Assembly: GCA_963786095.1 (NCBI GenBank) | Contig: CAWAXV010000038.1 | Location: 32,982-96,981 of the forward strand | DNA length: 64,000 nucleotides | Source: an uncultured Acidobacteriaceae bacterium | GTDB lineage: Bacteria; Acidobacteriota; Terriglobia; Terriglobales; Acidobacteriaceae | Reading direction: 5' to 3' | In this document: one piece after another, positions 10,050 to 14,604 of the stretch | Position numbering within the stretch: position 1 is the stretch's first letter | Layout of the letters: every line of letters begins with the position of its first letter | Made by a program: the position numbers and the translations under genes | The notes under the pieces: model-generated | Told to the model about the DNA's origin: nothing | The model's input: only the letters and a program-made list of their open reading frames with translations | The model's database searches: none

Positions 10050-11277
10050 TCAGAACTCCGGCACCATCGCCTTCGCTTCTTCCAGTGTGATTCTCTTCTT
10101 GTTCCTATAGGAAAGGTTCGCCATGTGCACCGCGATCGCGGATCGATAACCGATTTCCGGCGGAGCGTTCGGCACTCCCCGGCTGCGGATACAGTCGATC
10201 CAGTTGGCCATGTGGTTCTGGTTATGGGACCCGCCCTTCTTCGACTCTCCGTCGGGACGATTCGTCTTCTCCGGCCAGTATTCAAGAGGCTCCTCGAAGT
10301 GGTGCTCCAGTGTGCCATCGCTGCCCAGAATGCGGTCTGCCATGTCGTAGTGCTTGTTGCTGAAGGTCGACTGCCAGGTCACGACGATGTCCTTGGGAAA
10401 ATCGAGAGTGACGGCGATCGTGTCAGGCACCTCGCGTTCATCCTTTTCCGAGAAGACGCCGCCCGACATGTACGCCGCAGACGGCAGAGGCAGGTCGAGC
10501 GCACCTATGATCCAGGCGATCTGGTGCACCATGTTTTCCGCGCAATTGCCGCCGGAGAACTCCCAGAACAGACGCCAGTTAATGAGTTTGAAAGGATCGA
10601 ACGGCCGATCGGGCCGTCCATTGAGAAACGCGCTCCAATTGACGTTCTGTGCGGTGCAGTCCGATGGAACAGGACGCACCCACTGGCCTTTGCCGTGGGG
10701 AGTGTTGCGGCTCATCCAGGACTCGACTTGCGTGACCTTGCCGACCCAACCGTCTTTGATCCACTGCCGGGCATCGGTTAGTGCGCCGGAACTCTCGATG
10801 CTGCAGTCCGATCTGTATCACCCGGTTGGACTCCTTCGCTGCGGCCAGACACTTATCGGCCTCAGGAATCGACCAGGTCATGGTCTTCTCGGAATAGAGG
10901 TCCTTGCCGGCAGCCAGCGTGTCGAGAAAATGCCTCGCGTGAATGTGCAGCGGGCTGGCGACGATCACAGCGTCGATGTCTTTCATGTCGAGCAGACGGC
11001 GGTGATCGTCGAAGGTCTGAATGCCCGGGACCTTGCTTTTGGCTTCGTCCCGGCGGCGGCTATAGACGTCGGCCATCGCCACGAGCTCGACGCCATGGAC
11101 TCCGCGCACTTGCCCCAGCAGATCGTTGCCGCGGTCGCCTACTCCGATCATGCCAACGCGCACGCGATCGTTCGCGCCCAGCACGGTGGCAGTTGGATAG
11201 GCCAGCACGGCGGCGTTCCGATCGCAGCCTGCTTCAGAAACGAGCGTCTCGTTTGTTCGGCTCATAGTTCGCCCCAA
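10050..11277 (-). pseudogene. Gfo/Idh/MocA family oxidoreductase, one frame change
   Basis: The N-terminal part (track ORF 10579-11277) has VRVGMIGVGDRG...DAVIVASPLHIHARH. The C-terminal part (10050-10715) follows in the next frame. The junction near 10795 reads LQHRE|SGALTDARQWIKDGWVGKV and fits one extra base. Confidence 0.8.
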
Positions 11278-11298: not shown

Positions 11299-12259
11299 CT
11301 AGGATGCGCCGGCGTCTTGCAGAAGCTTCTTCATTCCAGCCCAACTCTTGCGTGACGACTCTTCGGGCGAACCGCCACCGCCCCAGTGGGTTTCGAGGCT
11401 GACGGCGAAGTGGTAGCCGTCGCGCTTGAGCGCCTTGAACTGGCCCGCCCAGTCGATGAGTCCGCCACCCATCGGAGCCCAGTCGTATTTCTTCCCTTTC
11501 TTGACGGTGTCTTTGCAGTGACAGTGACCGATGCGGTCTTTGGGCAGAAGATTGTAGCCGTCGGGATACGGAGTCTCGCCCGCGGCAGCGGCGTTGCCCG
11601 GATCCCAGTTCAGCATGAATGACGGAGTCTGCACCGCGCTCAACACCTTCGCAGCCTCGGCTCCTGTGGCCGTGTTGCATGCCGATTCATTTTCGAGTAC
11701 CAGAATGATGCCCATCTTCTCTGCCTTGGCGGCGGCCTCGCGCAGTTTGTCGTTGATGGCAGCGCGATACGGAGCCTGATCCTCAAGCCGCCAGAAGTCG
11801 AAGCAGCGCACGCGATCGGTCTGAAACGCCTTCGCCATCTCGATGGCACGGTCGAGCACTTCGTCCTGCTGCTTCCAGGAAAAATCTGCGCCGAAACTTT
11901 TGGCCTCGCTGAACTTCGATTTCGGCGCGCCCGGCCAGTCGACCTTAAAAAGCGGGCTGGCAATGTCGGTGACCTTCAGCTGGAATTTTTCGAGAATGCG
12001 GCGCGCTTCGGCGACTTCCTTTTCGTCGAGGCTGACGATGTTCTTCTTCCACATGCCGCGCAGCTCGATCCATCCCATGCCGAATTCGTGTGACGCGACC
12101 TCGCACGCGTGGCCGAAGTCCTGCGAGATTTCGTCATTAATGACAGAAATGCGGAAGGGCGAGTGGGATTCAGGTGGCAGTGAAACGGGCGGCCGCATTT
12201 GCGGCGGTCACGGCGACCATTCCCGCGAGGAATTCGCGGCGTGCAAACCGAATGGGCAT
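11299..12259 (-). pseudogene. Tat-exported xylose-isomerase-like TIM-barrel protein (sugar phosphate isomerase/epimerase family), one frame change after the signal peptide
   Basis: The ATG at 12259 is preceded by AAGGAG and encodes MPIRFARREFLAGMVAVTAANAAA (twin-arginine signal). That frame hits TGA and the body continues in ORF 11299-12198 (ISVINDEISQDF...LETHWGGGG). The shift is near 12175-12195. Confidence 0.8.
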
Positions 12260-12427
12260 TCCCTGCTCCTTGGGCAACGGTGGGCACAGCAACGAAAGGC
12301 GCAATCAAATCTACCACCATCGGAAACACAGGTGGATAGGCGAGTGATCCGATGCCCAAGGAAATAGCTGACTTTCAGCCTGTCGGAGAGCCGTTGGCGG
12401 GCTTGGGGACGTAGTGCAAGGTCTGGC

Positions 12428-12470
12428 GCGCAAAACAAAACGCCCCAGACTCGATTAGAGTCCTAGGACG
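12428..12470 (-). terminator. Intrinsic terminator of repeat unit A
   Basis: Minus strand reads CGTCCTAGGACTC-TAATC-GAGTCTGGGGCG followed by TTTTGTTTTG. Confidence 0.65.
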
Positions 12471-12598
12471 TCTGTTGATCAGCCCTCCCCCAAGTGCTGC
12501 TCAAGAACAACTCTAGTCCTGCTCCGAAATCCGGTAAATGGCTCGTCCGTGCCATGCAACGCGAATGGTGCAAATTGGAAGGAAAGTAATGTTTTCAC

Positions 12599-12640
12599 GC
12601 GCAAAACAAAACGCCCCGACTCAAATTGAGTCCTGGGCGC
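12599..12640 (-). terminator. Intrinsic terminator of repeat unit B
   Basis: Minus strand reads GCGCCCAGGACTCAA-T-TTGAGTCGGGGCG followed by TTTTGTTTTG. Confidence 0.65.
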
Positions 12641-12765
12641 CTGTTGATCAGCCCTCCCCCAAGTGCTGCTCAAGAACAACTCTATTCCTGCTCCGAAAGC
12701 CGGTAAATGGCTCGTCCGTGCCATGCAGCGCGAACGGTGCAGGTTGGCAAAAATACCGTTTTACG

Positions 12766-12808
12766 CGCAAAACAAAACGCCCCAGACTCGGTTTGAGTCA
12801 CGGGACGT
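12766..12808 (-). terminator. Intrinsic terminator of repeat unit C
   Basis: Minus strand reads CGTCCCGTGACTC-AAACC-GAGTCTGGGGCG followed by TTTTGTTTTG. Confidence 0.6.
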
Positions 12809-13032
12809 ATGTTGATCAGCCCTCCCCCAAGTGCTGCTCAAGAACAACTCTACGCATGCCCCAGGAATCGGGGAATGGCTCTGACGTGCTATGTATGGCA
12901 CTAATGGGTAGGTAGGGTAAGGGACGCCGCGAAAATGACGGTCCGAGGGGTCCCGGCCCTCGGAAATCATCATACCAATCCATTCGTTGATTACTTCCGT
13001 ACTAGTGACTGTAGACGGAGCCAATCGCTTAC

Positions 13033-13064
13033 CTGCACCAGCCGTGGCGCCGCGTCTGGTGCAG
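13033..13064 (+). promoter_or_regulatory. 9-bp perfect inverted repeat in the leader of the DUF4331 gene (function unknown)
   Basis: CTGCACCAG (13033-13041) and CTGGTGCAG (13056-13064) are separated by 14 nt, about 50 nt upstream of the ATG at 13113. Confidence 0.25.
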
Positions 13065-13112
13065 CCTATTCCTGAAGGGCACCGTCTTCAATTCAATCTC
13101 CGAGGAAATGTC

Positions 13113-14604
13113 ATGAAGCAACTGAAGTCAACGGTGGCCCTCGCCATGGCGCTGCTCATGTTGGTTCCAGCCAACCTGTTCGCATCCAGCCATCGCGAGG
13201 CTCCTATCACGGCGCTCGATCGCACCGCGGACGTGACGGACTGGTACGCCTTCGTCAGTTACGACCATCCGGATCGCGTAACCATGATTCTCAACGTCGA
13301 TCCATTTCTCGAACCCTCCAACGGTCCGAATTACTTTCCTTTCGATCCCAACGTCCTGTACGAGATGAAGGTCGACAATAACCAGGACGGAATCGAAGAC
13401 GTAACGTTCCAATTCCGATTCAACACTGAGATTCGCCAGCCGGGATTATTCACCGGATTTGTCGGTGGCATCGCCGGGATTCCGCCGATCACTTCGCTTT
13501 CGGGTCAAGGTTCGGCGGGCCTCAGCCTGCGCCAGACTTACAGCGTCGTTATGGTGAAGAACGGCCAAGCAACCTGTCTGAGCTGCGGCCAGACGCTCTA
13601 TGCGGTTCCGTCCAACGTTGGGCCGCGCACCATGCCCAATTACCAATCGTTGTTCAACCAGGGAATCTACAGCCTCGGCAACAGCGTTCGCGTCTTTGCC
13701 GGAACAGTGGATGATCCGTTCTACATCGACCTGGGCGCGGCGTTCGACTCGCTCAACTTCCGCATGGGAGTGGGTGGCGTGCTTCCCCCGGCCGAGGACG
13801 CGGACGACACGCACAACTACGCTCCTGACGCAGTCGCGGGCTTCAATGTGAACTCGATCGTGTTGGAAGTTCCGATCACCATGCTCACGGTGGACGGAAA
13901 GATTCATCCGACCACCGACAAGCAGGCTGTGATCGGGACTTATGGCAGCACATCACGCCACAAGCTCACGGTTCGGCGTTCGCCATTCCCGGAGAAGGAT
14001 TCGGGAGCGTTTCAGCAGATCCAGCGAGAAGGAAATCCTCTGATCAACGAACTGATCATCGGAACCGGATCGAAGGATCGCTTCAGCATGGATGATCCCA
14101 AGAACGATTCGCAGTTCGCGAACTTCGTGCTGAATCCCTTGCTGGCGACGGTGTTTCGGGTCACTCGGAATTCCGGTCGCCCCGCCACCGCGTACGGATT
14201 TGCTGATCCTGGCGCAGTACGAGCCACCGATCTGCCCTGGTTGCGGTGCTAGCGATGCCGGCCCAGTCGCGGATCTGCTCCGCCTCAACACGGGAATTCC
14301 TCCAACCGCAGTTGGCAGCCAGAAGCGCTTGGGCTTCCTCGCTGGCGATACGGCTGGGTTCCCGAACGGTCGCAGGCCCATCGATGACGTCGTCGACATC
14401 GCCTCTCGCGCTGTAGCTGGAATTCTTGTCGATTCCACCAAATATGGGACGGCAATTGGAGATGGCGTGCAGCTGAATCCGGAAGGGTACGGTTCCACGT
14501 TCCCCTACGTCATGCCGGCCAATAGTGGGCGCGACTCGGTCCACATCGGCCCCGGCCAAGCGGGCTGTTCCGGACAGACGAACGGAATCTGTCCCGTTCA
14601 GTAG
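13113..14604 (+). pseudogene. Secreted DUF4331 family protein, one frame change near 14156
   Basis: MKQLKSTVALAMALLMLVPANLFA | SSHREAPITALDRTADVTDWYAF... matches the SSHREAP start typical of DUF4331. The C-terminal part continues in ORF 14200-14604 (ADLLRLNTGIPPT...GFPNGRRPIDDVVDI). The junction ...LLATVF|GSLGIPVAPPPRTDLL fits one extra base. Confidence 0.8.

Follow-up and report, generated by a model that had tools for sequence, protein, structure and literature searches.

Three tandem units in an acidobacterial genome as candidate sibling small-RNA genes of a multicopy family with an invariant G-rich 5' hairpin

The Qrr1-5 RNAs of Vibrio are encoded by dispersed paralogous genes for small RNAs (sRNAs) of ~100 nucleotides (nt), each with its own sigma-54 promoter, an upstream site for the regulator LuxO, a Rho-independent terminator and a ~30-nt absolutely conserved segment; their copy number varies by species, and both their targets and their dependence on Hfq are known. 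Tandem sRNA paralogues are exemplified by PrrF1/2, OmrA/B and NsiR1, the alpha-proteobacterial 'cuckoo' or alpha-r14-r15 (AbcR) RNAs are multi-copy and often tandem and use hairpin loops with an anti-Shine-Dalgarno-like (anti-SD-like) motif, CCUCCUCCC, to pair with ribosome-binding sites, and CsrB and RsmX-Y-Z carry many GGA hairpins per RNA, with RsmX sometimes in tandem and with promoters preceded by a palindromic site for an activator. Here we describe a related organization in a stretch of 64,000 nt from an uncultured Acidobacteriaceae bacterium (contig CAWAXV010000038.1; the window hereafter), where three head-to-tail units of ~168 bp fill a ~500-bp stretch of the minus strand, upstream of a TIM-barrel gene. 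The initial annotation had read them as an array of paralogous minus-strand sRNA genes, a reading that the sequence analysis supports and that is strengthened by a promoter signal in each unit; its remark that tandem paralogues would be unusual is at odds with the examples above. We consider it likely that the units are three independently transcribed sibling sRNA genes, co-regulated via a shared operator and acting in trans through an invariant G-rich 5' hairpin.

The tandem arrangement is borne out by Tandem Repeats Finder, which reports one array at 12427-12852 (period 169, 2.5 copies, 88% matches), and by a three-way alignment of the units with a mean column identity of 87%. Likewise, an exact search of the 64-kb window recovers the 42-nt block said to be identical in all copies: the 42-mer AGAGTTGTTCTTGAGCAGCACTTGGGGGAGGGCTGATCAACA has exactly three minus-strand copies, at 12473-12514, 12642-12683 and 12810-12851, and none elsewhere in the window, with 0 matches to shuffled sequences. 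Outside the 42-mer only 73/130 columns are invariant, and given the 42 consecutive identical columns (about 3e-11) the conservation of the core therefore goes far beyond drift. Upstream of the core, unit C is only 46-52% identical to units A and B, yet its blocks stand in the same register, so that the description of its 5' half as unrelated proved wrong. The core itself is a composite of sequence signals, its first 12 nt matching part of a predicted -10 hexamer plus discriminator and its last 30 nt the predicted 5' end of an RNA, and across species its conserved part is limited to TAnnnT and the transcribed portion. The identity of the 42-nt block hence stands, but not its interpretation as a single conserved RNA segment, since 12 nt belong to the predicted promoter and discriminator.

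Homologous units were collected with a gapped pattern (12 loop bases plus the U-tract) run on one genome per GTDB species, which gave at least 120 matches, and with a 21-nt pattern run on Joint Genome Institute (JGI) metagenomes, for which soil and peat contigs are among the matches listed. A further 14 contigs (L001-L010 and L251-L254) were fetched via orthologues of the TIM-barrel protein with 84-93% identity. The units were anchored on the invariant core, numbered with the G of GAGCAGC as +1, and examined position by position in two sets, viz., 160 distinct units from the genome scan (among the matches listed) and 272 distinct units from genomes and metagenomes together (~250 loci). Both the distribution and the copy number per genome obtained in this way are lower bounds.

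Full invariance begins exactly at +1, and upstream of this point conservation drops except at the -10, -35 and palindrome positions. The -10 element, TAnnnT at -13..-8, has T-13 in 152/160, A-12 in 128/160 and T-8 in 148/160 genome-scan units, with TAGAGT, TAGTCT and TATGCT among the variants of the hexamer; it lies in register in 264 of the 272 units versus 1.5% of 5000 random positions, and ends 7 nt upstream of the invariant G of GAGCAGC. A TTTACC-like -35 element at -36..-31 lies 17 bp upstream of the -10, with four or more of six matches to TTGACA in 200/272 units versus 0.16% of controls, and the spacer is 17 bp long in 219/272 units and essentially unconserved in sequence. The presence of both hexamers, spaced within the 16-18 bp range and at a fixed distance from a conserved transcribed segment, is the sequence signature of a sigma-70-type promoter, with a predicted transcript that begins where invariance begins. 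The elements of these putative promoters are as follows.

12510 to 12515, minus strand: -10 hexamer of copy A, TAGAGT (-13..-8), from the 160-unit profile and the 272-unit register test
12533 to 12538, minus strand: -35 hexamer of copy A, TTTACC (-36..-31), with a 17-bp spacer, from the profile and the TTGACA match test
12538 to 12555, minus strand: palindrome of copy A, ATGGCAC-N4-GAGCCAT (-53..-36, centre -44.5), a putative transcription-factor operator, present in 259/272 units
12561 to 12570, minus strand: upstream block of copy A (about -68..-59; consensus C..TTCGYGC / C..TTCGTGCC), moderately conserved in the information profile
12679 to 12724, minus strand: promoter region of copy B, with -10 TAGAGT at 12679-12684, -35 TTTACC at 12702-12707 and the palindrome at 12707-12724
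12847 to 12892, minus strand: promoter region of copy C, with -10 TAGAGT at 12847-12852, -35 TTCCCC at 12870-12875 and the palindrome ATAGCAC-N4-GAGCCAT at 12875-12892

Two other readings of this region were tried and rejected. A sigma-54 promoter (TGGCAC...GC) should have GG and GC 10 bp apart (TGGCACG-N4-TTGCW), and here the arrangement is GG-N9-GC in all units; moreover, the first G of the -24 GG is A in 52/159 units and the base preceding GC is variable. A small hairpin (CCGG..CCGG) was found in some paralogue classes only, and falls inside the 17-bp promoter spacer.

The palindrome ATGGCACGGACGAGCCAT occurs at 12538-12555 and 12707-12724, the coordinates first given for a 5' hairpin ATGGC-N8-GCCAT in the RNA, and a palindrome-like block occupies -53..-36 in 259/272 units. 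The location is accurate, but it probably does not encode an RNA hairpin: the palindrome lies upstream of the -35 hexamer, with which it shares one base, and hence outside the predicted RNA. Folded as RNA, it would form no more than 5 bp in a consistent manner, and at its second G-C pair 42/159 units have A.C, 10/159 A-U and 7/159 G.U. An alternative hairpin of the two arms, or a UUCG mini-hairpin upstream, was likewise discarded, as register and pairing are inconsistent between paralogue classes. Divergent metagenome variants have a perfect TGGCAC-GTTC-GTGCCA at -52..-37 in the same register, together with a better -35 (TTCACA) and the TAnnnT register kept. Most likely, the palindrome, with its centre near -44.5, is an operator to which a dimeric regulator would bind, and the block C..TTCGTGCC, about one helical turn above it, may be a second half-site. 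The half-sites resemble those of CIRCE (TTAGCAC / GTGCTAA), a likeness that was set aside, the spacing being 4 bp here versus 13 bp. Neither the window nor ~1 Mb of related loci contains further operator copies beyond the units themselves, and no DNA-binding regulator is consistently adjacent to the units, the upstream neighbors being heterogeneous; receiver-only response regulators without a DNA-binding domain make up 6/34 divergent neighbors. In one lineage (L015, L022, L057 and L252-L254) the divergent gene at the TIM-barrel locus codes for such a protein, a 141-142-aa receiver (PF00072) with no output domain.

The predicted RNA of ~70 nt, which on the basis of the start of invariance and the promoter register replaces the 110-170 nt expected initially, is composed of two hairpins, namely a 5' stem-loop (GA.GCAGC.CUU[GGGG]GAG.GCUG.UC) and the terminator. 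Its copies and parts are the following.

12502 to 12432, minus strand: predicted sRNA copy A, 71 nt, running from +1 at G 12502 into the U-tract, where it would stop near 12432, both ends being inferred
12671 to 12603, minus strand: predicted sRNA copy B, 69 nt, with +1 at 12671 and a terminator stem 1 nt shorter per side than in copy A
12839 to 12769, minus strand: predicted sRNA copy C, 71 nt, with +1 at 12839
12477 to 12502, minus strand: 5' hairpin of copy A, GAGCAGCACUUGGGGGAGGGCUGAUC, with a G-rich apical loop, identical in 160/160 genome-scan units and 14/14 syntenic loci
12432 to 12476, minus strand: linker AACAGA and intrinsic terminator of copy A, an interrupted GC-rich stem followed by UUUUGUUUU (covarying helix 2)

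Folding gives -30.4 kcal/mol (z = -4.3) for copy A, -30.6 (z = -4.4) for copy B and -31.0 (z = -3.7) for copy C, and RNAalifold applied to whole units recovers only the 5' hairpin and the terminator. The 26-nt hairpin has the stem GAGCAGC/GCUGAUC and a G-rich apical loop, GGGGGAGGG, within a loop region that carries UUGGGGGAGGG; the GUUGUUC/GAUCAAC pairing previously suggested as able to close a loop is not conserved. Positions +1..+26 are identical in all 160 genome-scan units, and more than 100 species-level genomes share the hairpin without a single change. The genome-scan pattern fixed 12 of the 26 nt, while ~50 of the units are tandem neighbors that it did not select, and the hairpin is again identical in all 14 loci fetched via TIM-barrel orthologues, without any DNA pattern; nhmmer found no diverged copies in the same loci. 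Because the hairpin never varies in the genome set, it cannot be tested there by covariation. Variation is confined to positions 2, 24 and 26 of more distant metagenome copies (the metagenome pattern fixed positions 3-23 only), with the forms GCUGUUC, GCUGUUU, GCUGCUC, GCUGGUC and GGGCAGC...GCUGUUC: A24 (opposite G3 in the stem) is replaced by U, C or G, C26 (opposite G1) by U, and A2 (opposite U25) by G. These variants keep or improve the stem with the exception of G24 (3 copies), which does not pair. In four divergent metagenome copies (L156:947, L182 (-) 307, L197 (-) 256 and L249:5590) the RNA hairpin is kept and the palindrome is absent; L156, L182 and L249 also lack an in-register -10, which L197 has (TAAGCT), and one of the four has G at position 2. 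These copies may be expressed differently, be decaying or represent a more distant lineage.

Separated from the 5' hairpin by a linker of 4-6 nt, each unit ends in an interrupted GC-rich hairpin around GACTC/GAGTC followed by CGTTTTGTTTTG (tail CGUUUUGUUUUG), and in all three units the RNA form reads ...GACUC-loop-GAGUC...GGGGCG and then UUUUGUUUU, in agreement with the minimum-free-energy folds. The base of this helix is extended by pairing of AACA with UGUU of the tail. In an alignment of 127 distinct homologous transcripts (A4), terminator helix 2 has 8 pairs with compensatory double changes and 96.3% of its cells paired; 0/500 shuffles reach 8 pairs, and sliding the structure by 1-3 columns leaves 41-50% paired. 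The GC-rich stem-loop, the U-tract and the compensatory maintenance of the stem are those of a Rho-independent terminator, so that sequence, fold and covariation all confirm the claim that every unit has an intrinsic terminator of its own. A simple terminator scanner missed all three because their stems are interrupted.

Taken together, each unit has its own promoter signal and terminator and shares an invariant segment with the others, and the family is found at several loci irrespective of orientation, as befits sibling sRNA genes. We propose that a dimeric regulator would bind the palindrome and co-regulate all copies, and that each unit would be transcribed from its own sigma-70-type promoter, starting at or next to the G of GAGCAGC and ending at the Rho-independent terminator. 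The invariant G-rich hairpin would then act in trans, most likely by base-pairing with C/U-rich sites on other RNAs, and the tandem copies would add dosage, as in Qrr, PrrF or NsiR1.

Several points weigh against this proposal. The transcription start and the 3' ends of all copies are predictions from sequence. In the three copies of the window, each promoter hexamer agrees with the consensus at just 4/6 positions, so that they fell below the thresholds of a generic promoter scanner, which made no calls on them, and T-5, T-2 and T-1 are better conserved than is usual for a discriminator; the true 5' end could sit 1-2 nt or a few nt upstream, or these positions may matter for initiation. The invariance of the loop is partly imposed by the search patterns, and that of both stem strands would not normally be expected of an sRNA that simply pairs through a seed, and may indicate a protein or ribosomal partner. 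The strand bias relative to the neighboring genes (60 co-directional arrays versus 7 antisense to both flanks) is also compatible with some dependence on flanking transcription. Finally, target prediction for the G-rich segment, an analysis suggested at the outset, was run on 792 translation-initiation regions and yielded duplex energies no better than those of shuffles, in ~1 Mb of locus-biased sequence; a 9-mer complement scan gave no enrichment either. In the discriminator (-7..-1, e.g., 12503-12509 in the window) G-6, too, is more conserved than normal, and T-1/A27 show no covariation.

A separate observation concerns a conserved intergenic element of ~230 nt (L122:1340-1640, plus strand; also in L106, L087, L083, L136, L164, L217 and L232), which has no Rfam match and opens with an 11-nt C-run, CCCCCTCCCCC, the perfect complement of the loop GGGGGAGGG (predicted duplex -20.9 kcal/mol). 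Some 290 nt downstream of the element comes a small cupin gene, itself immediately upstream of one sRNA paralogue. The RNA might have its target or a partner RNA here, or the match may be coincidental.

A possible alternative, on balance unlikely, keeps the same ~70-nt trans-acting RNA and makes its hairpin a decoy, i.e., a mimic of a strong SD (GGGGGAGG) that titrates the 3' tail of 16S rRNA on the 30S subunit, or bait for a conserved RNA-binding protein, CsrA-like or other, with the tandem copies supplying stoichiometry. Recognition of the whole shape would fit the invariance of all 26 hairpin nt, stem included, better than a short seed does, the loop contains a GGA triplet, and the lack of target enrichment among the 792 start regions is in line with a decoy. 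The predicted duplex of the hairpin with the 16S tail GGAUCACCUCCUUUCU reaches -14.8 kcal/mol as against -7.0 for the SD of the TIM-barrel gene, although the tail used is the canonical bacterial sequence and not that of this organism. However, the A24->U variants (GCUGUUC, GCUGUUU) improve the stem and break the UGAUC:GAUCA part of the 16S pairing, which points to selection on the hairpin rather than on extended anti-SD complementarity. Ribosomes, moreover, greatly outnumber a typical sRNA. The RNA has a single GGA (G15-A17), in the apical hairpin, unlike the Csr/Rsm sequestering sRNAs with their multiple GGA loops.

The gene context bears on a second alternative, in which the units would work in cis and control read-through into the TIM-barrel / Gfo / ROK operon 170 bp downstream. 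With transcription starting at a promoter above unit C, they would form either a stack of three transcription attenuators, a possibility also raised in the initial annotation, or a processed leader. The nearest gene of this operon is the following.

11299 to 12259, minus strand: TIM-barrel gene with a twin-arginine translocation (TAT) signal, xylose-isomerase-like (Pfam AP_endonuc_2), the downstream syntenic neighbor, outside the RNA (synteny in L001-L010 and L251-L254)

It opens a TIM-barrel / Gfo / ROK / PntAB cluster, and all 14 contigs fetched via its orthologues have 1-3 unit copies directly upstream of the cluster and co-oriented with it; the other flank of the array varies and includes DUF4331, a fucosidase, a receiver-only response regulator and a sulfatase-modifying enzyme. 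Overall, at least 27 arrays of 1-4 copies sit at the TIM-barrel locus, which accounts for most multi-copy arrays. An attenuator function would be consistent with this concentration, with the array lying directly upstream of the TIM-barrel gene and co-oriented in 27/27 arrays at this locus, and with co-orientation of the downstream gene in 85/110 contexts over all loci. Against it, that gene is on the opposite strand in the remaining 25/110. A codon-usage gene finder trained on the loci, which reproduces the known genes of the window, gave the orientation of both flanks for 122 arrays (among the matches listed), of which 60 are co-directional on the same strand, 7 antisense to both flanks, 21 between divergent and 14 between convergent genes. 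Cases with high-scoring neighbors were inspected one by one (L025, L040/L093, L048 and L012/L014/L067), and single copies in convergent or doubly antisense contexts have high-scoring flanks in L025, L040, L048 and L093. Units that lie between convergent genes or antisense to both are not 5' leaders, and those between divergent genes are not 3' untranslated regions; with both excluded, the unit therefore needs a promoter and a terminator of its own, as are present. Further, each unit has its promoter signal in a fixed register, and a riboswitch or attenuator would be expected always upstream of and co-oriented with its gene and to carry a conserved sensor domain, while the segment 5' of the hairpin is an unconserved promoter spacer in which neither an aptamer-like fold nor an alternative anti-terminator is seen. 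Between the last terminator and the ATG there is also an inverted repeat of its own, likewise conserved, together with an SD. We therefore consider cis-acting attenuation quite improbable, and favor independently transcribed sRNA genes, for which the excess of co-oriented neighbors is unexplained and may reflect selection against head-on terminators or a contribution of read-through.

The family is represented in Candidatus Sulfotelmatobacter, Acidoferrum and their kin, soil and peat members of the phylum Acidobacteriota; among the matches listed in the genome scan, nearly all carry the label Sulfotelmatobacter, Acidobacteriaceae, Terriglobales, Acidoferrum or Acidiferrales. The TIM-barrel protein has thousands of close homologues, the named ones being from metagenome-assembled genomes (MAGs) of Candidatus Sulfotelmatobacter. 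Far from being orphans, as first supposed, the units belong to a family of hundreds of homologues with several loci per genome, and some MAGs carry two or three separate loci (among the matches listed). Pfam scans of the neighbors revealed other conserved loci, with the orders NAPRTase -> sRNA -> FG-GAP/ASPIC and MFS sugar transporter -> sRNA -> unknown protein, so that with the TIM-barrel locus there are at least three; the syntenic loci other than the TIM-barrel one have single copies, of which a genome holds several. A few contigs (L068, L085, L117 and L030) bear the names Candidatus Eisenbacteria, Dormiibacterota, Binatus or Aquilonibacter. Since both the units on them and the adjacent genes look acidobacterial, they are probably mis-binned or mislabelled MAG contigs and not a sign of horizontal spread.

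Such multiplicity raises the alternative of a dispersed DNA repeat, similar to repetitive extragenic palindromes (REPs) or miniature inverted-repeat transposable elements (MITEs), or of a reiterated protein site with a bidirectional terminator, the RNA being functionless. The units are indeed multi-copy, dispersed and palindrome-containing, and the search in relatives for a dispersed family, proposed with the first description, upheld this much. However, they hold syntenic positions shared by many species, whereas the insertion sites of REPs or MITEs would vary between relatives, and neither terminal inverted repeats nor duplicated target sites are visible. Conservation covers promoter plus transcript, with free spacers and an invariant transcribed part, the terminator stem covaries at the RNA level, and the viral contigs scanned contain no copy. 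A mere DNA repeat is thus very improbable. A small protein or leader peptide ending in ...EQHLGEG-stop, with its UGA within GCUGAUC, can be practically dismissed, for while many units have an uninterrupted frame of 30 or more codons through GAG CAG CAC UUG GGG GAG GGC UGA and the upstream U positions have a 3-nt periodicity, there is no conserved start codon or SD and no Pfam match, many units have an in-frame TAG, even within the conserved block, a 1-nt shift breaks the frame in ~20% of units, the synonymous 'codon' positions are invariant, and the periodic U positions include TAnnnT, with T-5 and T-2/T-1 in the discriminator staying unexplained. This agrees with the original view that the units are non-coding, the overlapping open reading frames (ORFs) having no Pfam match and no conserved start or reading frame.

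Some further features flank the array. The TIM-barrel gene is frameshifted in the window, its TAT signal peptide (MPIRFARREFLAG..., 12161-12259, minus strand) being out of frame with the mature domain; the adjacent Gfo/Idh/MocA oxidoreductase (10050-11277, minus strand) is split into two overlapping ORFs, where orthologues are single 404-aa proteins, and DUF4331 (12987-14604, plus strand) stops at profile position 305/421 and resumes in another frame. Three frameshifted neighbors suggest an indel-prone assembly, perhaps of long reads, or pseudogenes, and if the assembly is at fault, 1-nt differences between the sRNA copies could be sequencing errors too. Between the last sRNA terminator and the start of the TIM-barrel gene, at 12311-12339 (minus strand), an inverted repeat CTAYCC(R)CC...N~11...TGGTGGTAG is followed by ATTTGATT and recurs at all syntenic loci (in relatives L002:3924-3960, L005:3924-3960 and L007:3924-3955); distinct from the sRNA units, it may serve the TIM-barrel / Gfo / ROK operon as an operator or as a structure in its 5' UTR. 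Upstream of unit C, a terminator-like hairpin, TCCGAGGGCCGGGACCCCTCGGA followed by CCGTCATTTT (12942-12964, minus strand), is found where no minus-strand gene ends, and is not conserved in the closest relatives (L002).

The family appears to be undescribed, although the kind of element, i.e., multicopy and partly tandem sRNA genes with their own promoters and terminators, is well known. Comparison with Rfam 15, a check raised by the initial annotation, gave no match at gathering thresholds in the whole window and nothing relevant at E <= 10, including Acido-1 (RF01686) and Acido-Lenti-1 (RF01687). A literature search found no match to the core sequence in a bacterial context and nothing relevant on acidobacterial sRNAs, and the core is absent from the first 200 supplementary alignment files of Weinberg 2010. 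Acidobacteriota are among the most abundant bacteria of soil and peat, and their RNA-based regulation is almost unstudied; according to one review, just four sRNA families have been annotated in the phylum (PMC9029176). The present candidate is unusually clean in its succession of putative operator, promoter, ~70-nt RNA and terminator, and has several paralogous loci in each genome. If the palindrome is an operator common to all copies, a single regulator should control them, and through that regulator the signal could be traced. Most known sRNA seeds are C-rich loops, of which the SD-like G-rich loop is the mirror image; its partner might be C-rich RNAs, the anti-SD or a protein, and could point to an unstudied mode of regulation. 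An Rfam entry for the family could also mask the spurious ORFs now called across the units.

The nearest match in Rfam, below threshold, is the Chlorobi-1 motif (RF01696; Weinberg et al. 2010, PMC2864571), a candidate sRNA whose function is not known and which has a U-GGGGG-A apical loop, an A-rich linker and an intrinsic terminator. In its published alignment the hairpin with the (A)AUGGGGGA(C) loop comes just before the terminator, its stem covaries freely, and a further hairpin lies 5' of it (PMC2864571). The two share the G-loop hairpin ahead of linker and terminator and the several copies per genome; they differ in the extra 5' hairpin of Chlorobi-1, in its restriction to Chlorobi and in its covarying G-loop stem, the acidobacterial stem being invariant. 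Its model reaches only 11.3 bits versus a gathering threshold of 50 (E = 8), on unit B alone and with promoter sequence aligned to hairpin 1, and has no match when run against the predicted transcript alone. Chlorobi-1 is therefore best treated as an analogue, possibly a convergent one, and not as a family to which the units belong. It is a speculative and rather doubtful idea that the hairpin is an SD mimic or a ribonucleoprotein (RNP) handle for the 16S anti-SD tail or for a conserved RNA-binding protein, and that the units and Chlorobi-1 together form a cross-phylum 'UGGGGGA-loop' sRNA class; were it true, tandem amplification beside sugar-metabolism genes would tune dosage.

The acidobacterial units resemble the AbcR RNAs in an ultra-conserved loop motif followed by a terminator, but the loop here is of the complementary, SD-like kind (GGGGGAGGG). 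They share with CsrB and the Rsm RNAs a GGA hairpin loop, multiple gene copies and an upstream palindrome, and differ in the single GGA and in having no Rfam match. With NsiR1 (Nostocales; RF02399), PrrF1/PrrF2, OmrA/OmrB and LhrC1-4 they have in common head-to-tail repeats that each include a promoter and a terminator, and a copy number that varies between strains, 1-4 in the acidobacterial family; the regulators, the seed composition (G-rich in the acidobacterial family) and the taxa differ, and there is no homology, the NsiR1 model scoring 10.5 bits versus a gathering threshold of 39 and over the terminator only. The Qrr genes offer the parallel of several paralogues with their own promoter and terminator, an upstream site, an invariant segment amid drift and a variable copy number, whereas the acidobacterial units are tandem, belong to another phylum, have no sequence similarity to Qrr and carry sigma-70-like promoters, the GG-N9-GC arrangement ruling out sigma-54.

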